Below are positions 1 through 16,653 of a stretch of DNA of 17,157 nucleotides, piece after piece. The position numbers and the translations under genes were made by a program. A model generated the notes under the pieces. That model had not been told where the DNA came from, made no database searches, and saw only the letters and a list, made by a program, of their open reading frames with translations. Position 1 is the stretch's first letter; each line of letters begins with the position of its first letter. Location: assembly GCA_044356215.1 (NCBI GenBank), contig JBIKWQ010000129.1:1-17157 (forward strand), given 5' to 3'. This DNA is from Bdellovibrionota bacterium. Its GTDB lineage: Bacteria > Bdellovibrionota_C > UBA2361 > OMII01.

Positions 1-2063
1 CCAACGGATACGCCAACTAACACACCGACAGATACGCCGACAAATACGCCAACCAATACACCTACGCAGACCGCGACAAATACGCCAACTGACACACCGA
101 CAAATACGCCAACAGATACACCGACAAATACACCGACAAATACACCAACAGATACGCCAACTAATACGCCGACCGATACGCCAACTAATACGCCAACGAA
201 TACTCCAACAAATACCCCGACAGATACACCAACAGACACGCCAACTAATACTCCAACGAATACGCCAACGGTAACACCAACTAATACTCCGACTAACACG
301 CCAACAGATACGCCAACTAATACACCGACAGATACACCGACGGATACTCCAACTAATACACCGACGAATACACCGACTAATACGCCAACAAATACACCAA
401 CTCAGACCGCAACAAATACGCCAACAGATACGCCGACAAATACGCCAACAGATACACCGACAAATACGCCAACAGATACACCGACAGATACGCCAACTAG
501 TACGCCAACCAATACACCAACTGATACGCCGACAAGCACCCCAACTAATACACCAACCGATACACCAACAGATACGCCAACTAATACTCCAACGAACACG
601 GCAACGGTGACACCGACAAATACGCCGACAAATACACCAACAGATACACCGACAAACACGCCAACAGATACACCAACAGATACACCGACATATACGCCGA
701 CAAACACTCCAACGAACACCCCAACGAATACGCCAACTCAGACAGCGACCAGTACGCCAACCGATACACCAACAAACACACCGTCCAATACACCAACCAA
801 TACACCAACCGATACACCGACAACTACTCCAACGAACACGCCTACGGATACACCTACAGAAACACCGACAAATACGCCAACCAACACGCCAACCGATACC
901 CCGACCGTAACCCCAACAAGTACGCCGACAGATACACCAACCAGCACGCCAACAGACACACCGACCGGTACGCCGACGAATACACCGACAAGCACGCCAA
1001 CTAACACCCCAACCGATACCCCAACCGATACCCCGACGAATACGCCGACGAATACACCAACCGATACACCGACAGTGACGCCAACAGATACGCCAACAGA
1101 TACACCGACGGTAACGCCAACTAATACACCGACGAGTACGGCAACCGATACGCCAACTGACACTCCAACTAATACGCCAACTGATACGCCAACAGATACA
1201 CCGACAAATACGCCGACTAACACGGCGACAGACACTCCAACTAATACACCGACAAATACACCAACCTATACGCCAACTGATACACCGACTAGCTCGCCGA
1301 CATATACGGCGACGGATACGCCGACAGTTACACCGACAGATACTCCAACTAATACACCAACTGATACTCCGACTAGCAGTCCGACATACACACCAACAGA
1401 CACACCAACCGCGTCGCCAACATACACACCAACAGATACACCAACGGCTACACCGACGGATACACCGACCGACACTCCAACTAGTAGCCCGACGGTCACA
1501 CCGACTTACACGGCGACGGACACCCCGACTGTAACTCCAACAGACACCCCAACTTACACACCAACAGACACGCCGACAGACACACCTACTGATACTCCGA
1601 CCAACACGCCAACAGCCACCGGAACATCAACGCCGACCTACACACCGACCGATACACCTACCGGCACTCCGACTAACACGCCAACTGATACCCCTACAGA
1701 TACGCCAACGCATACCCCGACGAATACACCGACCGATACGCCAACTAATACCCCAACTAATACGCCAACCAACACGCCGACGAACACACCAACATCGACG
1801 CCGACGAGCTCGCCAACAAACACACCTACCGTGACACCGACAATGACGGCTACTGATACCCCAACTAGCTCGCCAACTTACACGCCAACAGGCACACCTA
1901 CAGATACACCGACGAGTACACCAACATCGACACCGACGAACACTCCAACGGTTACACCGACCAGCACACCGACAAATACTCCAACTGTAACGCCTACTAA
2001 TACGCCGACGTACACCGCTAGTAATACGCCTACCGAGACACCGACATTTACTCCAACTCCACC
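1..2063 (+). repeat. Degenerate 12-bp coding tandem repeat (TPTN/TPTD tetrapeptide)
   Basis: Continuous 12-nt periodicity (acN ccN acN aay/gay) with synonymous third-position variation, ending at ...TPTFTPTPP near 2063. Confidence 0.95.
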
Positions 2064-3141
2064 TTCATACAACTTGAGCTTCCGAGTGGTGCGTGCATCT
2101 GGAACACCGCCTACTGGAGACCCAAGTGAACAGCAGACACCTATACCAGGCTTAAGGGTTGAGGTGGTAGAGGAGATTCAGACAACACCAGTGGCTATAC
2201 ATGAGGTGTTAACAGATAAAGACGGTAAACCGCTTACTCAGATCCAAGTTGATAGCGCATCCGACGTTACGATTCAGTCTCTCGACGCGACTATAGCCCG
2301 ATTCGCGGCGTCTGGCCCGGCCAGTGAGTTCGCGGATCCTCTAGCTCCAGCGGTAGTCGCTACTCCGATGATCGACTCGATGGTTGCTTGTCGAAGTATA
2401 GTAGCGGGCACTCCAGTTGTTGAGTTTAGATACAACAATATGAACGAGGCTCCGACAGAGGCATTGGTACCGATTACAGGCCTAAATCCAGAACTCTATA
2501 GAACACCTGAAACCCCACTGGACGATCTACGGCTCAATAGCATCAGGGGCGGCGATAGTGATGTTATACCAGATGCGAGCAATAGAGGAGCTACGCCGAA
2601 TGAGTCTAAACAGCTATTCATTAATGGTGAAGGATCGTTCCGCGTGCCATATGATACAGGATTTGGACCGCTTACATGGAGCTTCATCGGTAAGGAGACA
2701 ACTGTTGATAGCTCTACCAACCTCTGCGAAGGCGAGGGAACGATAAGATGTGATCTGCTATCACCTGAGCTAATCGAGCGTCTTGTAACCGAGCTACGTA
2801 GCACAGTGTCTGGAACTCTCAAAGCGGCTTCGAAGGTGATGAAGCTTGGAAGAAGTCCGTATCTAAAATCCAGCTCTAAAGCGATACGGGACATCCGCCG
2901 TCAGGCCAACGAACTTCTCGGAGCGTGGGTATGTCCTGCTGGAGCGACCATACCAAATAATAGCTGTGGCGCGATGAAGTTCCCGGCGAGCGCGCTGCAG
3001 AAGACTCACGAAGGTATATTCAGTAAACCAAGTCCGGTAAGACGACAGGTATTTGATAAACTCGGTAAATCTTACAACAGACGGTACCAGAGATTCCTGG
3101 CCACCACGTTCCCACAAGAGATAGTAAAGTGCGGAAAGTAA
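1..3141 (+). CDS. Very large Pro/Thr-repeat (mucin-like, probably surface or secreted) protein, 5'-truncated by the window edge
   Basis: Frame 1 is open from base 1 (cca acg gat acg = PTDT...) to TAA at 3139-3141, so the GTG at 607 in the ORF track is internal. About 687 residues of TPT[N/D/x] repeats precede a ~360-aa non-repetitive region with several Cys. Confidence 0.85.
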
Positions 3142-3154
3142 GCTCCTCTCCTCC

Positions 3155-3970
3155 CTAACCCTCGAGCCTGAAAGCGATAGGAACAATTAAAGCGAGCTTG
3201 TTTTTGCGTAGGTCGTTTGGAAAAGCGGGAAATGGCGCGGCGCGCTCAGCCATAGCCTTAAGCTCCTCATCGAGGATCTGAGTCTCTGTGGATCGTAAGA
3301 TCTCTACATTAGCCAATGAGCCGTCAGAGCTAATCTCAAGCCGTATCGATCCTTCTCCGGACATTCGGCGCTTCAATGCTCTCTCGGGGTAGCGCTTCGC
3401 TCGCGCTATAAGTGTAGCCACCATATCTTGATAACTAATCCGTGCCTGCTCGAGTGAAATATCCACTCCGTTAGCGGTTCCGAGTTTGCCTGTCGAATTG
3501 CTTTCTCTCGCTTCTGAATCTCTCGATCGCTTAGAGCTATCCTCGTTGGTCGATCGATCAAGATTATCTTTGAGCTTGAGTGTAGAAGCCGGGATGATCC
3601 TTTTCGGAGACTCTGACTTCGTTGGAGTAGCAGGAGTAATTTCCGGTTCCGGCTTTTTATCCAATTCAGAGGAAATCACGGGAGTAACAGGATCTGGCTC
3701 TCCCTTTGGAAGTAGAGTGTCTAGCGCCGATAGCGGCACTATCGTTACATCTAGGATCTGTTCCTGCGGAATACCTACGAGCTCTTCACGTTGCCAGTAG
3801 GTAATGGCTAGGCAAATCGCGACAAGAAGGGTGTGAAGAGCCAGAGAGATAGCTGCCGCGCGTTTAAATAAAGGTTGCGCGTCATCGAGTCGCGACCCTC
3901 GCGGCACTGGATGCGGCCCCGCGCCATGGCGACTACACGCAACCTGAGATGGAAGAGATAAAGCAGACAC
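3155..3970 (-). CDS. tonB: TonB-family energy transducer
   Basis: N-terminal TM helix with S-x3-H (AAAISLALHTLLVAICLAI), Pro/Glu/Lys-rich linker, TonB_C domain (YPERALKRRMSGEGSIRLEISSDG...ILDEE...AAPFPAFP). The GTG start is uncertain. Confidence 0.85.
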   Translation of the reverse strand: MSALSLPSQVACSRHGAGPHPVPRGSRLDDAQPLFKRAAAISLALHTLLVAICLAITYWQREELVGIPQEQILDVTIVPLSALDTLLPKGEPDPVTPVISSELDKKPEPEITPATPTKSESPKRIIPASTLKLKDNLDRSTNEDSSKRSRDSEARESNSTGKLGTANGVDISLEQARISYQDMVATLIARAKRYPERALKRRMSGEGSIRLEISSDGSLANVEILRSTETQILDEELKAMAERAAPFPAFPNDLRKNKLALIVPIAFRLEG

Positions 3971-4149: not shown

Positions 4150-5694
4150 TCACAGGTCCTCAATAGAACTGAGGATCCTCTGCGCCTGGAGGCGAATATC
4201 GCTCTTCTCTTTCTCAGGCATCTTCTTTAGTAACTGGTAGCCCATACCAATTCGAGGGTTCTTCGACAGCTCGTCCTCGTGGCGCATTAAAAAATCCCAG
4301 TAGAGCGAATTGAAAGGACACGCCCGCTCCCCTAAACGCTCCTTGTATCGATAGAAGCATGAGCCGCAGTAGTTAGACATCTTGTTTACATACGCTGCGC
4401 TTGAGTGATACGGCTTCGTGCCAACGATCCCTCCATCCGCAAATTGACTCATCCCTCTGGTGTTAGGAAGCTGTACCCATTCAAGGGCATCGATATAGAT
4501 CCCCAGATACCAGGCATCAACTTGGTCGGGATCGATTCCAGTCATCATAGTGAAATTACCAGTGACCATTAAACGCTGTATGTGGTGCGCGTAGCCCTCG
4601 CGAAGTGACTGAGTCACGGCGTGTTTTACACAGTTCATCTTAGTTTCACCGGTCCAAAAATAACCCGGGAGATCTCTTGATGCGCCAAGGGCGTTGAGGG
4701 TTTTGTACTTAGGCATCTCTGTCCAGTAGATCCCGCGCATAAACTCGCGCCAGCCTGCTATCTGTCTAACAAATCCTTCGACCTGAGCTAGACTTATCGC
4801 GCCTTTACTCGCTTTAAACGCGGCGACCGCGGCATCAACTACCTCTAATGGGGAGATGTGCTTAACATTTAACGAGAACGAGAGGCGCGAGTGAAAGAGG
4901 AAGGGATAATCCGTATGCATCGCGTCCTGATACGAGCCAAAGCTTGGCAGAAGCTCATTACAGAAATACTTTAGAGTGCTCAGCGCCTCGGTCCTTGTAA
5001 CGGGCCAGGTGAAACTATCAGGCTCGACTGAGCCGATAGTCTCTATTTGCTCTGATTTTATCAGTTTTATGAGATCGCTAACGTTTCGCTTAAAGAGTTT
5101 AGGTTGAGGTGGCTTTAGATCCTTAGGGAGTTTGTTGCGGTTCTCTGCGTCGAAATTCCATCGACCACCTAGGGGCTCGCCGTCCTCCATCAATATGTCA
5201 TATCGTTTCCTTACAGCCCGATAGAAGCTCTCCATCACGTAACGTTTGTGGCCCTTAAAGACATCTGCAAAAAAATCTGGCTCTACGAGGAAGTGTTCGC
5301 TAGATACGCACCTGCTTTGGAGAGATAAGGTATTACAGAGAGCTTTTAGGTTATCGCTGACGCGATATTCGTCCGGTTGCTGATACTCAAAACTTGAGTA
5401 ATTCCCAGATTCGATAATTCGCTTGATATTTCCCTCAAGAGACCTAGAGTTGTCTCGGTCGTCAAGGGTGATGTAGATAACTTTAAATCCCTTGGATTGT
5501 AATTCATCAGCAAACGCGCGCATCGCTAAAAAGAAGGCTATAACTTTCTGAATGTGGTGCTTTACATACTCGGATTCAGCATGTACCTCCATCATAAGAT
5601 AGGTGACTGAATCGGCACGTTCCTTAAACCATGAGTGATCGTGATTTAGTTGGTCGCCTAGGATTAGCCTTAAGGTTCTAGTTTTTGTACTCAT
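4150..5694 (-). CDS. Cryptochrome/photolyase family protein, Fe-S bacterial subgroup (PhrB-like, probable (6-4) photolyase)
   Basis: LRLILGDQL, HIQK, GGRWNFDAENR, LFHSRLS, EGFVRQIAGWREF, YAHHIQRLM, EWVQLPNTRGMSQFADGG; four Fe-S Cys (MNC, NYCGSC, ACPF). Start moved to ATG 5694 (MSTKTRTLRL), just after the DUF2256 stop. Confidence 0.92.
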   Translation of the reverse strand: MSTKTRTLRLILGDQLNHDHSWFKERADSVTYLMMEVHAESEYVKHHIQKVIAFFLAMRAFADELQSKGFKVIYITLDDRDNSRSLEGNIKRIIESGNYSSFEYQQPDEYRVSDNLKALCNTLSLQSRCVSSEHFLVEPDFFADVFKGHKRYVMESFYRAVRKRYDILMEDGEPLGGRWNFDAENRNKLPKDLKPPQPKLFKRNVSDLIKLIKSEQIETIGSVEPDSFTWPVTRTEALSTLKYFCNELLPSFGSYQDAMHTDYPFLFHSRLSFSLNVKHISPLEVVDAAVAAFKASKGAISLAQVEGFVRQIAGWREFMRGIYWTEMPKYKTLNALGASRDLPGYFWTGETKMNCVKHAVTQSLREGYAHHIQRLMVTGNFTMMTGIDPDQVDAWYLGIYIDALEWVQLPNTRGMSQFADGGIVGTKPYHSSAAYVNKMSNYCGSCFYRYKERLGERACPFNSLYWDFLMRHEDELSKNPRIGMGYQLLKKMPEKEKSDIRLQAQRILSSIEDL

Positions 5695-5699
5695 CAGAA

Positions 5700-5873
5700 T
5701 TACTCTTTCCGTTTCGATGCGCTGCTTCTCTGGCATCGCTCACTACAATAAATCACCCGATCCCAGTTGTTGCGCCACCTCTTTCTCCACGCGAAAACCC
5801 GCGAGCAGGTAGGGCAGATCTTTGTTGGGAGGTCACTTTTTAGCCCTTTTGGGCGATCTTTAGGGCGTTTCAT
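5700..5873 (-). CDS. DUF2256 family small Cys protein (57 aa)
   Basis: KSDLPTKICPTCSRVFAWRKRWRNNWDRVIYCSERC fits the DUF2256 pattern, a family often next to photolyase genes. Start moved to ATG 5873, which removes the overlap with lysA. Confidence 0.88.
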   Translation of the reverse strand: MKRPKDRPKGLKSDLPTKICPTCSRVFAWRKRWRNNWDRVIYCSERCQRSSASKRKE

Positions 5874-5946
5874 GGTTATTAAGGTAACAGAGAGGAGGCC
5901 AGAGTTCTTCCACAGGCGCCCTTCCTTAGCTATACTGGCCAGCGTT

Positions 5947-7206
5947 ATGAAGAGCAACCTACCTTTTTCAAAATCCGAGATAGATGATCTAACCAGCAGG
6001 CATCCCACGCCTTTTTATCTCTACACAGAGAAAGAGATCGTTGATAACGCTAAAAGACTAGTTCAGGCTTTTTCGTGGAATAAAGGCTTCAAAGAATACT
6101 TTGCTGTTAAGGCTACACCAAACCCATTTTTGATGAAGATCTTAAGAGCTAACGGTCTTGGAATGGACGCAAGCTCCTTAGCGGAGCTAAAGCTTAGTGA
6201 AGCCAGTGGCGCTCGAGGTGAGGAGATTATGTTCACCTCGAATAATACGCCAGCAGCAGAGTACTTAAAGGCGCGTGAGCTAGGCGCTATTATCAATCTA
6301 GACGACCTAACTCAGATCGATTACCTCAATGAGCATGTTGGTATTCCGGAGCTTATATCGTTTCGTTTAAATCCCGGATCGGAGCTTGGTGGGTCAGATA
6401 TAATAGGGAAGCCAGAGGAAGCTAAGTTTGGATTGACCAGAGAGCAACTTGTTGCAGCTTATCGTCAGGCGAAGGAGCTGGGAGCTAAACGTTTCGGTAT
6501 CCACACGATGCCGATCTCCAATCATTTAGAGATCGATTACTTTCAGCAAACCGTGAGAGTTCTGCTAAAGATATCGCTTGAGCTGCGCGCGGAGCTAGGA
6601 ATAAATATTGAGTTTATCAATATAGGGGGAGGGCTTGGAATCCCTTACCGTCCGGAGGAGAGGTCGCTTGATGTTGAGGCACTTAGCGGCCTGATCCAGC
6701 GAGCCTATCAAGAGACCCTGGCAGGCACCGGCCTTGAGCCACCTAAGTTATTTATGGAGTGCGGGCGATTTATCACGGGACCATACGGATACTTAATCAC
6801 CCGCGCTGTTCATACAAAAGAGATATACCGTAATTACATCGGTGTAGACGCGACGATGGCTAATCTTATGCGTCCCGGGATGTACGATGCGTATCACCAC
6901 ATAACCGTTCTTGGAAAAGAACAAGCGCCAAACACCGAAGTATACGATGTAGTAGGTTCGTTGTGTGAAAATAACGACAAATTCGCTAAAAAACGAAACC
7001 TTCCTAAGATTGAAGTTGGAGATCTGCTGGTCATTCACGACGCCGGAGCTCACGGACACTCAATGGGCTTTAATTATAACGGAAAGCTGCGCTCCGCGGA
7101 GTTGCTAAAGAGGCCAGATGGATCGGTTATCGAGATCCGCAGGGCTGAAACTTACAAGGATCTCTTCGCGACGCTGGATCTAGCTCGGGTGGGAGACTTC
7201 TCGTAA
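5947..7206 (+). CDS. lysA: Diaminopimelate decarboxylase (PLP-dependent)
   Basis: PTPFYLY, FAVKATPNP (PLP Lys), KFG, INIGGGLGIPY, ECGRFITG, GSLCENNDKF, GAHGHSMGFNYNGK. Start moved to ATG 5947 (MKSNLPF; 419 aa). Confidence 0.95.
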   Translation: MKSNLPFSKSEIDDLTSRHPTPFYLYTEKEIVDNAKRLVQAFSWNKGFKEYFAVKATPNPFLMKILRANGLGMDASSLAELKLSEASGARGEEIMFTSNNTPAAEYLKARELGAIINLDDLTQIDYLNEHVGIPELISFRLNPGSELGGSDIIGKPEEAKFGLTREQLVAAYRQAKELGAKRFGIHTMPISNHLEIDYFQQTVRVLLKISLELRAELGINIEFINIGGGLGIPYRPEERSLDVEALSGLIQRAYQETLAGTGLEPPKLFMECGRFITGPYGYLITRAVHTKEIYRNYIGVDATMANLMRPGMYDAYHHITVLGKEQAPNTEVYDVVGSLCENNDKFAKKRNLPKIEVGDLLVIHDAGAHGHSMGFNYNGKLRSAELLKRPDGSVIEIRRAETYKDLFATLDLARVGDFS

Positions 7207-7208
7207 CC

Positions 7209-9620
7209 ATGAAGTACGCCAAGTATCACGGCTTAGGAAACGACTATATCGTGATGAGCGCGAGGGATCTCTCGACGCCTCTGACGCTTGAGATGGTACG
7301 ACGGATCTGCGACCGGAATTTAGGAGCTGGCTCAGACGGGATAGTTCTCGTGGAGAAAAACACTCCAGCTGGTTTTATCGTCAGGATCTTTAATCCAGAC
7401 GGCAGTGAGGCTGAAAACAGCGGCAACGGCATGCGGATCGTAGCGCGCTATCTTTTTGATACCAAGCAAGTTGGACGCGAGCCTTTAAATTTATTGGTGA
7501 GGGGCGAAAGAAAGATTACAGCGCATGTGCTTGATGCGCGTGACGCGATCGAGGTCGACATGGGACAAGCTGTTTTCTCAAGCTCTGTTATTCCAGTCGC
7601 AGGAGAAGAGCGCGAGGTTCTCGGTGAAAAGCTCAATATCCTCGGCGAAGAGCTCACAATCAACTGCGTCAATGTTGGCAATCCGCACTGCGTTATCGTC
7701 GGACGTCCGGATATCAAGGATGGCGCGCAGAGACTGGGGCCTTGTATTGAGGTGCACGAGAAATTTCCAAAGAGAATTAACGTCCAGTTCGTTCACGTAA
7801 TTGATCGCTCAAATATTAGAATTGAGATATGGGAGCGAGGTGCTGGCTACACCTTGGCATCAGGTTCAAGTTCGTGCGCGGCGGTCAGTGTTTGCAGACG
7901 TCTCGGCTTGGTAGATAGCGATGTTACAGTGAAGATGCCGGGTGGCGAGCTTAAGATCTCTGTAAGTGATGATTACAAGATAAAGCTAACGGGGCCGATA
8001 ACCAGAGTCGCGTCAGGAGAGATAGATCCAGAGGTGTTTCTCTGGGGAGCTCAAGAAGAGAGGAGCGATTTTAGAAGACCGGTTAGCGATCTTATCCCGG
8101 ACGAGTGCTGTACTTCCGAGTCGCTATCTGTACTTCGTAGGGCCAGCGCGGATCAGTTATCTGTCACCGGCATCACCTCGGATTCAAGGGTTGTTAAGCC
8201 AGGAGATCTATTCTTCGCTATTCATGGAGCTAAGCACGACGCGAGACTCCTGATAAATGAGGCCTTTGATAAGGGCGCAAAGGCGGTTGTTTATGAGGGC
8301 TCTCTGCCTCTTCCGCCTAAGGGTGTTGTAATCCCAGTGGTTGATATCAGACGAGCGCTTTCGTACGCCGCACACAAGTTTTTTGGTGAGCCTAGTCTAC
8401 TTACCACTAATATTGGTATCACTGGAACGAGTGGCAAGACCTCTGTGGCTTGGATCCTATCGCATGCGCTGCATATCTTAGGAAAGAAGACATTCTTGGG
8501 AGGCACCCTCGGGTATGCCACATTGCAAAGTGGTGACACGCCATCAGTGAATCTTAAGGAGCTAGGTAACACCACAATTGATCCGATTACGGTGCATCGG
8601 TTTTTATCTGATGAGCTTAAGAGTGGTGTGCAGGCAGCGGTTTTTGAAGCGACCTCGCAAGGAGTTGCTCAACGCAGAATGCGTGATGTCGCGTGGGATG
8701 GGGTGATATTCACCAATTTAACCCGTGATCACATGGATCTTCACGGAACGATGGAGGCTTACGAAGCCGCAAAAAGCGAGCTCTTTACCACCGATCTTAT
8801 GAGCAGCCCAAAGCGTAATCGCTTTGCTGTGATTAATATCGATGACGTCGCAGGTCAGAGGATCGCCTCAGAATTAAAGCATAATCATAAAGAGATCTCT
8901 GTAATAACGCTCTCGTGTAATCCGGCATTAAAGAGCGATTTTTGTATAACCGATCTCACCTCAACTGCCTTGGGAATCCAGTATGATCTGAAAGGGCAGG
9001 GGGACGCTGTGCGGATCAAGGCAAATTTTATTGGCGACCACAACGCTTATAATCTTGGGTGCGCTGCGTTAGCGCTTCGCGCGCTTGGATTTAAAGGGCC
9101 TGATATAACGCGGGCGCTAGAGTTGGTTCCCGCGGTACCTGGGCGACTAGAGCCAGTTTCACGCGCAAAGATACCTGTTTTTATTGATTACGCCCATAAG
9201 CCTGATGCGTTAGAGAAGGTGCTTAAATTTTTACGGCCTGTGTGTGCTGGAAAGTTAATCTCGGTTTTTGGATGTGGTGGAGACCGCGATGCAGGTAAGA
9301 GGCCGGTGATGGGTGAGATCTCAGCCCGATTAGCTGATAAAACGATCGTTACATCCGACAACCCACGGAGTGAGGATCCAAAGGCGATTATCGAGGAGAT
9401 CGTTAGTGGTATACCAATGGAGAATCGTGAGAAATTGGTAATAGAAGCCGATCGCCGTAAAGCGATTGAGTTAGCGATCGGCATGGCTACGGAGAGAGAT
9501 ATCGTATTAGTGGCCGGCAAAGGGCACGAGACGTACCAAGAGATTCAGGGGGTGAAGTATCCCTTTTCGGATCCAGAGGTTTGCGCGGAGGTTTTGGGGG
9601 TGAGTAGGACTTCCGCGTAG
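7209..9620 (+). CDS. dapF-murE: Fusion: DapF-family diaminopimelate epimerase (res ~1-275, Ser/Ser active site) + MurE UDP-MurNAc-tripeptide ligase (res ~289-803)
   Basis: DapF motifs KYHGLGNDY, GSDG, FNPDGSEAENSGNG, VGNPHCV, FPKRINVQF, WERGAGYTLASGS, MPGG. MurE motifs DSRVVKPGDLF, GITGTSGKTS, FTNLTRDHMD, PGRLE, DYAHKPDAL, FGCGGDRD, DNPR, AGKGHETYQ. No stop between domains. Confidence 0.92.
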   Translation: MKYAKYHGLGNDYIVMSARDLSTPLTLEMVRRICDRNLGAGSDGIVLVEKNTPAGFIVRIFNPDGSEAENSGNGMRIVARYLFDTKQVGREPLNLLVRGERKITAHVLDARDAIEVDMGQAVFSSSVIPVAGEEREVLGEKLNILGEELTINCVNVGNPHCVIVGRPDIKDGAQRLGPCIEVHEKFPKRINVQFVHVIDRSNIRIEIWERGAGYTLASGSSSCAAVSVCRRLGLVDSDVTVKMPGGELKISVSDDYKIKLTGPITRVASGEIDPEVFLWGAQEERSDFRRPVSDLIPDECCTSESLSVLRRASADQLSVTGITSDSRVVKPGDLFFAIHGAKHDARLLINEAFDKGAKAVVYEGSLPLPPKGVVIPVVDIRRALSYAAHKFFGEPSLLTTNIGITGTSGKTSVAWILSHALHILGKKTFLGGTLGYATLQSGDTPSVNLKELGNTTIDPITVHRFLSDELKSGVQAAVFEATSQGVAQRRMRDVAWDGVIFTNLTRDHMDLHGTMEAYEAAKSELFTTDLMSSPKRNRFAVINIDDVAGQRIASELKHNHKEISVITLSCNPALKSDFCITDLTSTALGIQYDLKGQGDAVRIKANFIGDHNAYNLGCAALALRALGFKGPDITRALELVPAVPGRLEPVSRAKIPVFIDYAHKPDALEKVLKFLRPVCAGKLISVFGCGGDRDAGKRPVMGEISARLADKTIVTSDNPRSEDPKAIIEEIVSGIPMENREKLVIEADRRKAIELAIGMATERDIVLVAGKGHETYQEIQGVKYPFSDPEVCAEVLGVSRTSA

Positions 9621-9802
9621 GTCCGCGAGATTTGGTATGACTCCCGTACTCTTGCTCGTAGACCAAATCTTATAACGTGGACGTGAGCGTTTCACGTTTC
9701 CCGTGCACGAGCAGGAGCACGATAAACGTCTACGCGCACGGCTTTTACATGTGAAACCTACCTGTAATTGACCCTAACCCCCCTCATACCAGCAACCTCC
9801 TA

Positions 9803-9827
9803 TTTACTTTAATCTCGTTAAAGTAAA
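9803..9827. promoter_or_regulatory. Perfect inverted repeat, putative operator upstream of the 72-aa ORF
   Basis: TTTACTTTAA-tctcg-TTAAAGTAAA (10-bp arms, 5-bp spacer), 30 nt upstream of ATG 9858. Confidence 0.5.
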
Positions 9828-9857
9828 CGCCTAATAGGTGTCACATAGGGGGTAAGT

Positions 9858-10076
9858 ATGAAACTGCCAGGTTGGGAAAAGGTCGCGTCAGCCGAGGAAT
9901 ATCGACAGATGATCGAGGCTGAATATTACCGCCTTAAAGACAAGCGTGAAACGAAACCTGAGCCCACAATGGGTTTAGAGGAGGTTAAACTCAGACTCTT
10001 TTTGTCTCTCTTAGATAAGCCGATTGTTCAAGACAACGCTGCCGGATTGGATTCGGCTCATATAGGGGCGAGGTAA
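9858..10076 (+). CDS. Hypothetical small protein (72 aa)
   Basis: ATG preceded by a G-rich SD-like sequence (aggggg taagt atg); fills an otherwise empty gap; charged, helical-looking sequence; no family recognised. Confidence 0.55.
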   Translation: MKLPGWEKVASAEEYRQMIEAEYYRLKDKRETKPEPTMGLEEVKLRLFLSLLDKPIVQDNAAGLDSAHIGAR

Positions 10077-10127
10077 GGAGGCGACTTGGGGCAGGCGCTT
10101 AAGGAAGCGAGGTTTTGCCTCGTCTCC
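10077..10127. terminator. Long imperfect hairpin between convergent genes, possible bidirectional terminator
   Basis: GGAGGCG...CGTCTCC outer stem, GGGCAGG...TTTGCCT middle stem with G-U pairs, inner CGCTT-aagg-AAGCG. No clear U-tract. Confidence 0.4.
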
Positions 10128-10131
10128 CTAT

Positions 10132-11349
10132 CTACTCCAGCACCACAATCCCACGGCCAATGAGCTCTGCTAGTAAAGCAGCAGCCTTGGCGTCTTTCAC
10201 GAGCGGCTTTGCGATGCCATTCGGCACAACAACCCTATTAGCTATCTCTGCCGCCAGCAGAGCTGCTTTGCCGTCGAGATCAAACCGCTCGCCGTTAGCA
10301 TAGAACCTGATCTCGGACTCCCTTGCCTTCTTGCTTTTAGCCTTAGCCTCAGATTTATCTGATCCCTTCACAAAAGCACATCGAGCGCCTTCAGCTCTGG
10401 AGATCTCAGCTCCATCACTGATTGCTTTGCGAATCACCGAGAGTTTCGGCGCTCTGCGTTTGGCGTTTAGCTCAACATCGCAGTAGCTCTCAGTTACATA
10501 CCGACTTAGCCACGATTCAATCAAAGAATCATTAGCCACCTGCTTGGTGATAATGCCTTTTATCTTCTTTATAGTCTCTGGGGTGATCTCTCCCGGGGCC
10601 TGCGGAGCGAGCTCAGGGTCGCAGTATCTCTCTGACTCATCTCCGGTAGATAGAGCCTCAGTCACAACGCCATTTACCAGATCATGAATCGAGGGAGCTC
10701 TGAAGCCAACAGAGATCGTCATACACCGATCTCCTCGTGCTATCCCATGGTGCGGAAAACGGGGGGGTAGATACAGAATATCACCTGGCTCAAGAAGCCA
10801 ACGGTGAGTGGGTTTAAATTTTCTAAGCAGTCTAATCGGCAACCCCGGAACAAAGTCATCTTCGAGAACAGCACGGTCCTCTATCATCCATTCACGGGTT
10901 CCGTGAGCTTGCACCAGAAAAACATCGTAGTTATCAACGTGCGCTCCGACGTTACCCTGATCGTATGCGACGCTTATCATGACATCGTCGATGCGCCAGA
11001 AAGGAATAAAAGAGAAATTATCAACGAACGCGTTAATCGCCGGAACGAATCGATCGACACCATTAACAAGGATAGTCCAGTGAGTCTTAGGGAGCTTGGA
11101 GAATAAGCTAGGCTTAAATGGACCCCGGCGAAGCTCCCAAGGGGTCTTGCCACCCTTCTCCATGATAAGCCGCGACTCCACTCTCGGATCGCAGCTAAGC
11201 CCGGCCACCTCATCAGGAGAGATGAGATCTGGAAAAGGTTTAAGAGCACCTTTCATAAGAAGTGGGCGCTTCTGCCAGAATTTCTCGAGAAATTCGCGTT
11301 GAGAGTGTTTCCCAAGTACGGGCCAAGATATAGAGCTAAGATTTTTCAT
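10132..11349 (-). CDS. roxA: JmjC/cupin 2OG-Fe(II) oxygenase, ribosomal protein uL16 arginine hydroxylase family (RoxA/YcfD)
   Basis: FWQKRPLL, VESRLI, WTILV, WRIDDVMIS, GAHVDNYDVFLVQ (HxD), LEPGDILYLPPRFPHHG (distal His), TISVGFRAP. Confidence 0.88.
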   Translation of the reverse strand: MKNLSSISWPVLGKHSQREFLEKFWQKRPLLMKGALKPFPDLISPDEVAGLSCDPRVESRLIMEKGGKTPWELRRGPFKPSLFSKLPKTHWTILVNGVDRFVPAINAFVDNFSFIPFWRIDDVMISVAYDQGNVGAHVDNYDVFLVQAHGTREWMIEDRAVLEDDFVPGLPIRLLRKFKPTHRWLLEPGDILYLPPRFPHHGIARGDRCMTISVGFRAPSIHDLVNGVVTEALSTGDESERYCDPELAPQAPGEITPETIKKIKGIITKQVANDSLIESWLSRYVTESYCDVELNAKRRAPKLSVIRKAISDGAEISRAEGARCAFVKGSDKSEAKAKSKKARESEIRFYANGERFDLDGKAALLAAEIANRVVVPNGIAKPLVKDAKAAALLAELIGRGIVVLE

Positions 11350-15964: not shown

Positions 15965-16270
15965 CTAATCCAAAGCAACTCTCTCCTTAAAGACTCCATC
16001 CCTGTAAGCTTCCGCTAAATCGGATTCTCTAACTAAGTCAATTCGAAAAGGTAGGGTGCTCTCCTCGAGTTTTTCGGAGATCCGACTGATGAGAGCTGGA
16101 TCCAAGATACCCTCGATTAAAAGATCGAGATCAGAAAACTCAGTGAAATCACCTCGAGCGCGAGAGCCGAACACCCAAAGTTTTACGCCTGCTTCCCGCA
16201 TGGGCAGCAGAAGTATCTGACCAATTAGGCTCCAATGTGCTTCGCTTATGCCGAATCTCTGAGGGCTCAT
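15965..16270 (-). CDS. Minimal nucleotidyltransferase (MNT, MntA/HI0073-like antitoxin)
   Basis: FGSRARGDFTEFSDLDL (GS-x10-DxD), LPFRIDLV; ATGA overlap with the upstream HEPN gene. Confidence 0.88.
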   Translation of the reverse strand: MSPQRFGISEAHWSLIGQILLLPMREAGVKLWVFGSRARGDFTEFSDLDLLIEGILDPALISRISEKLEESTLPFRIDLVRESDLAEAYRDGVFKERVALD

Positions 16271-16653
16271 CTAGCTTGCTCGATCGCGCGCACCAAATCA
16301 TCCGCGAAGGATGGAAGAATTAGAGCGCTAGAATACACTTCCTCAGCGAGAGACTCCTTGTATGTGTGACTGGACAAATTTCGCGCGTCAACAAATTTGA
16401 TCCATGCTTCAGGATCCTTAATCAGCCCAAGTCGAGCTCCCTCGCGAAATGTGTTCTTTGGGGTTAAAACCTCACTTATACCTGATGACCTTATGTGTCT
16501 TTGCAAAACCTTCCAGCTAAGTTCTACGGTGAATTCGAACCTTTGTATTACTGAGTCCCGAATCACATCGGATTTAGGTAGGGCTAGAGCCTCCTTCAGT
16601 CGGGTGATTGCGCGCTTTAATTCGTCTAGCTTATTTTCGGCGCCGTAGGTCAT
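16267..16653 (-). CDS. HEPN protein, HI0074 nucleotidyltransferase substrate-binding family (HepT-like toxin)
   Basis: RDSVIQRFEFTVELSWK, PKNTFREG, RNLSSHTY (R-x4-H-x-Y HEPN RNase motif). Confidence 0.9.
   Translation of the reverse strand: MTYGAENKLDELKRAITRLKEALALPKSDVIRDSVIQRFEFTVELSWKVLQRHIRSSGISEVLTPKNTFREGARLGLIKDPEAWIKFVDARNLSSHTYKESLAEEVYSSALILPSFADDLVRAIEQAR

Follow-up and report, generated by a model that had tools for sequence, protein, structure and literature searches.

A conserved fusion of a serine-type DapF to MurE, encoded directly downstream of lysA in lake-water bacteria labelled Bdellovibrionota

The stretch analysed here, hereafter the window (17,157 nucleotides (nt); contig JBIKWQ010000129.1 of assembly GCA_044356215.1), carries lysA followed by a single frame in which a diaminopimelate (DAP) epimerase domain, DapF, is joined to a complete MurE. 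DapF converts LL-DAP to meso-DAP, MurE adds meso-DAP to the cell-wall precursor and LysA turns meso-DAP into lysine. The fused frame at 7209-9620 is intact, real and conserved across species. The reading preferred here, to which a probability of roughly 0.68 is assigned, is that of a real conserved fusion of a serine-type DapF to a complete MurE, predicted to epimerise LL-DAP and then likely to ligate the meso-DAP to UDP-MurNAc-L-Ala-D-Glu on one polypeptide. The host belongs to a small group of uncultured lake-water bacteria labelled Bdellovibrionota, and the fusion combines well-known enzymes in a new domain arrangement. An earlier note on this DNA had described a lysA stop at 7206, a 2-nt spacer and one 803-codon frame, as the open reading frame (ORF) listing and the sequence confirm, and had placed the maker and the users of meso-DAP (DapF, MurE and LysA) together in one two-gene operon, with which the profile matches agree. 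The principal features, all on the forward strand, are as follows.

5947..7206, forward: lysA, diaminopimelate decarboxylase, 419 residues plus stop (TIGR01048; Orn_Arg_deC_N and Orn_DAP_Arg_deC)
7209..9620, forward: dapF::murE, a single 803-codon frame with an ATG start, stop counted in the coordinates (ORF listing, Pfam, NCBIfam)
7209..8024, forward: DapF domain of the serine type, residues 1-272 (TIGR00652), with Ser71 at 7419-7421 and Ser218 at 7860-7862
8025..8084, forward: linker, residues 273-292 (junction alignment with the separate genes of the unfused genome G042; predicted local distance difference test, pLDDT)
8085..9617, forward: MurE module, residues 293-803 (TIGR01085; invariant residues; fold match)
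8421-8444, forward: P-loop TGTSGKTS, T405-S412 (aligned with solved MurE)
8772-8774, forward: conserved lysine K522 of the AAK motif (invariant in 27 fused sequences)
9357-9368, forward: DNPR motif, D717-R720 (invariant in the fused sequences)

Both halves of the protein are recognisable over essentially their full lengths. Pfam assigns DAP_epimerase (in two stretches), Mur_ligase, Mur_ligase_M and Mur_ligase_C to the 803-residue frame. The DapF domain reaches 235.5 bits against a TIGR00652 cut-off of 114.65 across residues 1-272 and profile positions 1-268 of 270, and the MurE domain 468.5 bits against a TIGR01085 cut-off of 257.3 across residues 317-796. The MurE equivalog NF001126 is likewise exceeded (457.7 against 373); with a score of 258 the protein stays below the cut-off (536) of the L-Lys ligase equivalog NF010628, which fits a MurE of the meso-DAP-adding type with DNPR. 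The P-loop, the AAK lysine (carbamylated in the E. coli enzyme), DNPR and GKGHE are invariant across the fused homologues, and the complete MurE with DNPR at 9357-9368 that had been reported earlier is upheld by TIGR01085, the motif occupying residues 717-720. In sequence, the best Protein Data Bank match of the MurE module is the MurE part of the MurE-MurF chimera 8f5d (E 8.5e-90), with E. coli MurE 1e8c also among the matches (E 1.6e-76). An AlphaFold2 model built from 27 fused sequences has a mean pLDDT of 84.9 and a predicted template modelling score (pTM) of 0.67; it matches solved DapF chains at template modelling (TM) scores of 0.83-0.89 and the solved MurE chains 1e8c, 2wtz and 4bub at 0.80-0.86, both normalised to the target, and no single solved chain in this structure match covered both parts.

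The fused frame is not a product of assembly. The junction (about 8025-8160) is crossed whole, with substitutions and without indels, by four contigs from other studies (X2 7233-8599, X5 7898-8460, X4 7278-8464 and X7 7942-8856), and a fifth such contig, X9, which reaches 8101 and so covers part of the junction only, is equally free of indels. Reads across the junction and fused homologues in relatives had been named in the earlier note among the checks; the contigs just listed carry no indel, and fused homologues occur in 24 metagenome clusters and in 5 of the 35 species-level genomes of the genus. The five genomes are G000, that of the window (96.5% complete, 131 contigs), G004, G006, G007 and G050; in each, a single open frame aligns with residues 1 to about 797 of the window protein, and the frames of the relatives are 67-68% identical to it. 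The clusters (P0003-P0026), drawn from a search of about 5.8 billion metagenome proteins, are full-length co-linear fusions of 61-96% identity. That two genes were joined by an assembly or sequencing artefact is thus refuted, one frame being kept across independent assemblies, species and studies. Among the best 150 matches in a search of 50%-identity clusters (1.84 billion representatives), two were full-length DapF-MurE fusions, namely P0012, which represents the family of the window protein, and P0291, which belongs to a second family. A further protein, P0264 (664 residues), places a MurE C-terminal piece before a full MurE and reflects a tandem duplication or mis-assembly, not a DapF fusion.

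Fusion is the minority state in the genus. Among the 30 genomes without it, 25 gave a stand-alone murE match, three a stand-alone dapF match only, G042 has dapF and murE adjacent yet separate, and one (87% complete) gave no match at E ≤ 1e-40. None of the 15 stand-alone dapF loci inspected in the genus has lysA or murE within 3 kb. The earlier guess at novelty holds in so far as a literature search, judged by title and abstract, found no paper naming a DapF-MurE fusion, and fails in so far as the proteins already stand in public databases where, if named, they are named as MurE alone. In the portions consulted, PMC8657477 does not deal with such a fusion, and the words 'DapF' and 'epimerase' are absent from the main text and one supplement of the Mur-chimera survey PMC10214165.

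The earlier note had called the DapF domain complete, which stands as regards the TIGR00652 match, and had overlooked that both catalytic cysteines are replaced. The canonical catalytic pair, Cys73/Cys217 in H. influenzae numbering, aligns in solved DapFs with S71 (NSGNG against MCGNG) and S218 (LASGSS against LACGTG), and by its sequence the domain falls in a Ser/Ser sub-type. In 51 Ser/Ser sequences aligned with solved DapFs, the motifs GNDY, NPDGS, GNG, GNPH and ERGAG are invariant or nearly so. Serine occupies both sites in all 15 stand-alone DapFs of the genus, in G042 and in the seven fused sequences of the DapF tree. In a separate alignment, S71 and S218 occur in at least 90% of 27 rows; as the only Cys/Cys rows are P0051 and P0052, all 25 rows of the window family have serine at both positions. 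The nearest 120 stand-alone homologues comprise 118 Ser/Ser proteins and two that were pattern-matched at one site only, with serine there, and some of the serine-type homologues are labelled Opitutaceae or Planctomycetota. In other families of the order, cysteine is found at both sites in G034 and G025 and at site 1 in G031, serine at site 2 in G038, and the G037 locus was missed by the pattern. On these alignments, the serine substitution predates the fusion and spreads beyond the fused group. As a separate observation, genus member G009 carries a second DapF homologue (33% identical; contig C155, 1964-2785) besides its Ser/Ser one.

The replacement of both cysteines, together with the Bdellovibrionota label of the lineage, leaves room for a DapF domain that is not catalytic and acts instead for MurE in DAP binding, regulation or dimerisation, meso-DAP then coming from elsewhere, for example from the wall of prey. 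Such a role is very unlikely. Active DapFs with two catalytic serines are described in passages of a 2026 paper on P. aeruginosa DapF (PMC13728532), which cites Lamer et al. 2025 (J Mol Biol 437:169375) for them; according to the same passages, a Cys/Cys and a Ser/Ser DapF occur together in Anabaena sp. YBS01, and a serine-to-cysteine swap inactivated the Ser/Ser enzyme. Moreover, the nearest stand-alone homologues carry serine wherever the pattern matched, and the domain is the sole DapF homologue of a genome with dapA, dapB and lysA and without Ddh. Because Ser/Ser DapFs are reported active, the homologue is the only one, dapA and dapB are present and no Ddh match was found, the DapF domain of the fusion is predicted to be a working serine-type epimerase and not a dead module.

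The genome context bears on the cell-wall role. In G000 no other murE match exceeds the cut-off and no other DapF match of any strength was found, and therefore the fusion must carry the cell-wall function. Its neighbours in the window are, by Pfam, TonB-like, DPRP, JmjC, SpoU and MqnC-like genes, with no gene of the division and cell wall (dcw) cluster among them, as had been noted earlier, and it does not lie between ftsI and murF or mraY. In the unfused genus member G001, the usual order mraZ-rsmH-ftsI-murE-...-mraY is kept; on contig C17 of G000, mraZ-rsmH-ftsL-ftsI is followed by unrelated ORFs, and a look for another murE in the cluster, as the earlier note had proposed, found none. In G000, mraY stands alone on contig C37; the other pieces are murC-murB-ftsA-ftsZ (C62), a murF-like gene together with ddl (C56) and murD together with a MurL-like gene (C106). 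For the supply of DAP, G000 has dapA and dapB over their cut-offs, the profile search gave no Ddh match and the DapL models scored far below their cut-offs.

Three further observations concern this dispersed gene set. The dcw cluster of G000 lies in at least five pieces (C17, C37, C56, C62 and C106). Its murF-like gene (545 residues) has an N-terminal extension and scores 199.9 against a murF cut-off of 288.6. The MurL-like gene of C106 (locus L131, 178-1647) lies directly upstream of murD (1655-3046) and reaches 216.8 bits against a cut-off of 700 with NF041275, the UDP-MurNAc-L-Ala-L-Glu epimerase model; the pair hints at a route in which L-Glu would be added and then epimerised, instead of one using a glutamate racemase. 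An L-Glu-then-epimerise route is known from Xanthomonas.

Under the preferred reading, LL-DAP would be supplied by a dapA/dapB/dapD-like/dapE-like route, the DapF domain would form meso-DAP, and the tethered MurE (for the wall) and LysA (for lysine) would share it, LysA being translated just upstream from the same message and competing for the common substrate. The linker, put at about 14 residues in the earlier note, is nearer 20 (273-292) by the G042 junction alignment and the model; it comprises the DapF C-terminal tail and some 10 extra residues, followed by the native MurE N-terminus (VSDLI...), and its columns are unconserved among 25 fused homologues. Since it is variable in sequence, has pLDDT below 50 at residues 278-286 and belongs to a model of pTM 0.67, a flexible tether fits better than a fixed channel. 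Such a tether would give a 1:1 dose and hold the active sites near each other, with no sealed channel. DapF enzymes are usually dimers, and for this reason two MurE modules per fusion dimer may be expected. True substrate channelling, an idea raised in the earlier note, in which docked modules would pass meso-DAP directly to MurE, serve the wall first, exclude LL-DAP and leave the overflow to LysA, is considered unlikely: consecutive enzymes were fused twice independently, all three meso-DAP enzymes share one operon and the MurE-MurF chimera, as covered in the consulted parts of PMC10214165, indicates that fixed interfaces are possible in Mur fusions, but the variable, low-confidence linker, the pTM of 0.67 and the existence of close unfused relatives speak against it.

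The form found in G042 suggests how the join came about. Its lysA (454-codon frame), dapF (283) and murE (511) lie on one strand with successive 4-nt overlaps, the TGA of dapF overlapping the ATG of murE as ATGA. Because of this overlap, loss of the dapF stop could yield a fusion, and a lost stop in an ATGA-overlapping operon is the simplest origin that may be proposed from the sequences. The MurE N-terminus reads VSDLI... in the fused protein and VQDLI... in G042, joined in the fusion through the roughly 10 extra unconserved residues. By the MqnC-like marker, the genus members matched are 76-85% identical to G000 and G042, the most distant member, 69%, so that its standing as direct ancestor is doubtful; on its gene order, G042 is an unfused form of the operon and is not called the ancestor. 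A Shine-Dalgarno (SD)-like GAGAGGAG at 8056-8063 is a remnant of the old murE ribosome site, the old murE ATG having gone. Codons 261-345 contain a single in-frame start codon, the GTG at 8034 (codon 276), which has an AGGAG 15-19 nt upstream. This GTG and the SD-like element are what would support a MurE made also or mainly alone from an internal start, with the fusion protein as a minor product; the AGGAG-GTG distance exceeds that of a usual ribosome site, GAGAGGAG is followed by no start codon within codons 277-345 and the original ATG is lost, and this alternative is rated as highly improbable.

A second family of fusions, P0051, P0052 and P0291 (776-786 residues), from Bacillota-like gut organisms, resembles that of the window in its DapF-MurE order, short linker and DNPR, and differs in having a Cys/Cys DapF. 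Its members are 33-35% identical to the window protein; P0291 (776 residues) shares 33% identity with it and aligns co-linearly with P0051 and P0052 at 47% identity. A resemblance of the MurE part to Bacillota proteins comes from the ESM Atlas, which returned MurE clusters only (best score 0.87), and is no more than a lead. A scan of gut-metagenome contigs with P0051 returned nearest loci in which dapF and murE are apart, and did not return the fused gene itself. An independent origin of this family follows from its Cys/Cys DapF, the 33-35% identity, the Bacillota-like MurE and the split nearest loci; judged from these sequences, DapF and MurE were joined at least twice, and the joins have persisted.

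The proteins of the operon diverge from the rest of the genus far more than housekeeping proteins do, a feature that the earlier note had overlooked. Between G000 and G001, identity is 80% for MraZ, 65% for RsmH, 73% for FtsI and 79% for MraY, as against 40-47% for MurE, 48-57% for DapF and 27-31% for LysA between the operon proteins and the rest of the genus. To G042 the operon proteins show 65% (LysA), 57% (MurE) and 54% (DapF) identity, and LysA is 71-74% identical among the fused species. The MurE trees group the fused proteins with G042 and about 20 unfused metagenome proteins in a single clade (100/100), parted from the dcw-type clade of the genus and order by branches supported at 97/94 and 97/89. 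With all MurEs of the lineage placed in one clade, the approximately unbiased (AU) test gave p = 0.08 and does not reject a common origin; hence horizontal acquisition is only suggested for the MurE part taken alone. The favoured explanation is that an assembled or transferred lysA-dapF-murE unit replaced three native genes.

Of the 124 phylum genomes, 18, belonging to several families, carry LysA of the operon type; in the four genomes examined outside the sub-clade (G110, G062, G082 and G054), dapF is beside lysA in none. In all five genomes searched for an empty site (G001, G008, G024, G047 and G042), the DPRP and JmjC neighbours are on different contigs, so that they mark no clean insertion site. 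Apart from these results, two LysA types that share 27-31% identity are patchily spread across the genus and phylum, and a search with the operon-type query at E ≤ 1e-30 gave no match in 12 of the 35 genus genomes. In G082 (locus L148), operon-type lysA (1107-2342, reverse) and murE (2628-3842, forward; 39% identical to that of the window) are divergent neighbours, with no dapF at the locus. A bolder extension would make lysA-dapF::murE a self-contained, horizontally moving branch-point module that displaced three dispersed native genes, including the dcw murE, and hands meso-DAP straight to the wall, DapF thus being, by Rosetta-stone logic, a member of the cytoplasmic Mur complex in bacteria generally; this extension is doubtful.

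Several observations weigh against the preferred reading. Unfused proteins lie amid fused ones in the MurE tree (P0027, P0038, P0042 and the G042 group) and in the DapF tree (P0124, P0133 and P0143); therefore, fusion is optional and may bring no kinetic advantage. One of them, P0124 (282 residues), ends within the linker region and pairs with the fused P0006 in the DapF tree (SH-aLRT 99). LysA, with fold-type III pyridoxal phosphate decarboxylase domains (PF02784 and PF00278), scores 306.6 bits against the TIGR01048 cut-off of 297.9, a margin of 9 bits only. The dapE-like gene of G000 falls below its cut-off (354.6 against 361.8), as does the weak dapD-like match, and the LL-DAP route is consequently a presumed one. 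The reports of Ser/Ser activity comprise two passages of a citing paper (PMC13728532). Transcription of lysA-dapF::murE is barely supported, by one small metatranscriptome contig in each of two RNA libraries (X19 7683-7850 and X20 6907-7115); DNA carry-over is possible, and the contigs are too little for an operon transcript.

The interleaving of fused and unfused forms in the trees, with P0124 beside P0006, the 4-nt overlap in G042 and the unconserved linker would also suit a selectively neutral fusion, in which a point change removed the dapF stop, the change was tolerated and the protein works as two separate enzymes. This is possible, at clearly less than even odds, since proteins as little as 61% identical, and five species, retain the fused frame, as do members of the second family at 47% identity.

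At the locus itself, the two co-directional genes lie between DPRP (photolyase-related), which is divergent, and the convergent JmjC gene. The five genomes with the fusion (G000, G004, G006, G007 and G050) all have lysA directly upstream of it, and the TonB-DPRP left flank is common to the three whose contigs extend that far. The longest form of the lysA-containing ORF is 5767-7206 (forward); since the TIGR01048 match begins at residue 64 of this long frame and relatives align from the methionine at 5947, the ATG there is most likely the start. The TAA stop of lysA (7204-7206) is followed by the spacer CC and the ATG of the fused frame at 7209. Two features precede lysA.

5737..5946, forward: presumed operon promoter region, DPRP-lysA intergenic, with one sigma-70-like site at 5909-5936
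5909-5936, forward: candidate sigma-70-like site TCCACA-16-TATACT, ending about 10 nt before the lysA ATG

A scan of 5600-10200 gave two promoter-like sites against 4.8 expected by chance, and as this count is below expectation the site at 5909-5936 is a candidate only. The same interval holds three terminator-like sites against 4.0 expected, with none after 9620. In the 510-nt gap 3' of the fused gene (9621-10131), there is a 72-codon frame (9858-10076, forward) behind the ribosome-site-like GGGGGTAAG. Elsewhere in the window, a 5'-open forward frame of at least 1046 residues (1-3141) consists, over its first ~720 residues, of a nearly pure TPT[ND] repeat (TPTNTPTD...), followed by a non-repeat C-terminal domain of about 320 residues; its only Pfam match is a PT repeat below cut-off, and the repeat accounts for the extreme strand skew (GC skew -0.49, AT skew +0.63). 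On the reverse strand, 15965-16653 encodes an MNT-like nucleotidyltransferase (101 residues) and a HepT-like/NTase-substrate-binding protein (128 residues) with a 4-nt overlap, a pair that looks like a toxin-antitoxin system of the HepT-MNT type.

Among known systems, canonical DapF and MurE are separate proteins with murE in the dcw cluster, as is still so in G001 (the one unfused genome examined); the window protein resembles stand-alone DapF (H. influenzae 1bwz/1gqz, E. coli 4ijz) and MurE (E. coli 1e8c, M. tuberculosis 2wtz) in folds and in motifs except the two cysteines. The Ser/Ser DapF of Anabaena sp. YBS01, compared by description only (from passages of PMC13728532), has both catalytic cysteines changed to serine in a DapF-like sequence and fold, and is a stand-alone second copy beside a Cys/Cys enzyme, whereas the Ser/Ser domain of the window is the sole DapF and is fused to MurE. 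According to the parts consulted of PMC5885031, the DapF of Chlamydia trachomatis is a bifunctional DAP epimerase/glutamate racemase; it likewise ties DapF more tightly into peptidoglycan precursor supply, but through one active site with two substrates and no fusion, and its model NF038284 gives the window protein 62.7 against a cut-off of 350.

The closest parallel in construction is the MurE-MurF of Bordetella pertussis (8f5d), also an essential Mur ligase fused with the enzyme of a neighbouring step and a hint of cytoplasmic wall-enzyme complexes; in the window, by contrast, the partner is an N-terminal amino-acid epimerase that is not dcw-encoded, and the gene lies outside the dcw cluster beside lysA. 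In the sections consulted, the survey PMC10214165, which excluded unidentified species, lists MurE-MurF, MurC-Ddl, MurC-MurB, MurG-MurC, MurD-FtsW and MraY-MurG chimeras and treats natural Mur chimeras as evidence for wall-enzyme complexes and as structural handles. The protein described here is likewise an in-frame fusion to an enzyme of the peptidoglycan pathway conserved across species, and a DapF partner is not among the types listed in those sections.

The accepted roles of DapF, MurE and LysA are unchanged by the finding. It indicates that murE, among the most position-stable of dcw genes, can leave the cluster and, judging from the gene content of G000, that a bacterium can have a serine-type DapF as its only epimerase. 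With the fusion, its naturally split counterpart in G042 and LysA all coming from one lineage, there is a ready-made construct for testing channelling at the branch point between lysine and the cell wall. Furthermore, complexes for the cytoplasmic steps of peptidoglycan synthesis are debated, and a conserved DapF-MurE fusion that has arisen twice extends the logic of chimeras to the supply of the amino acid.

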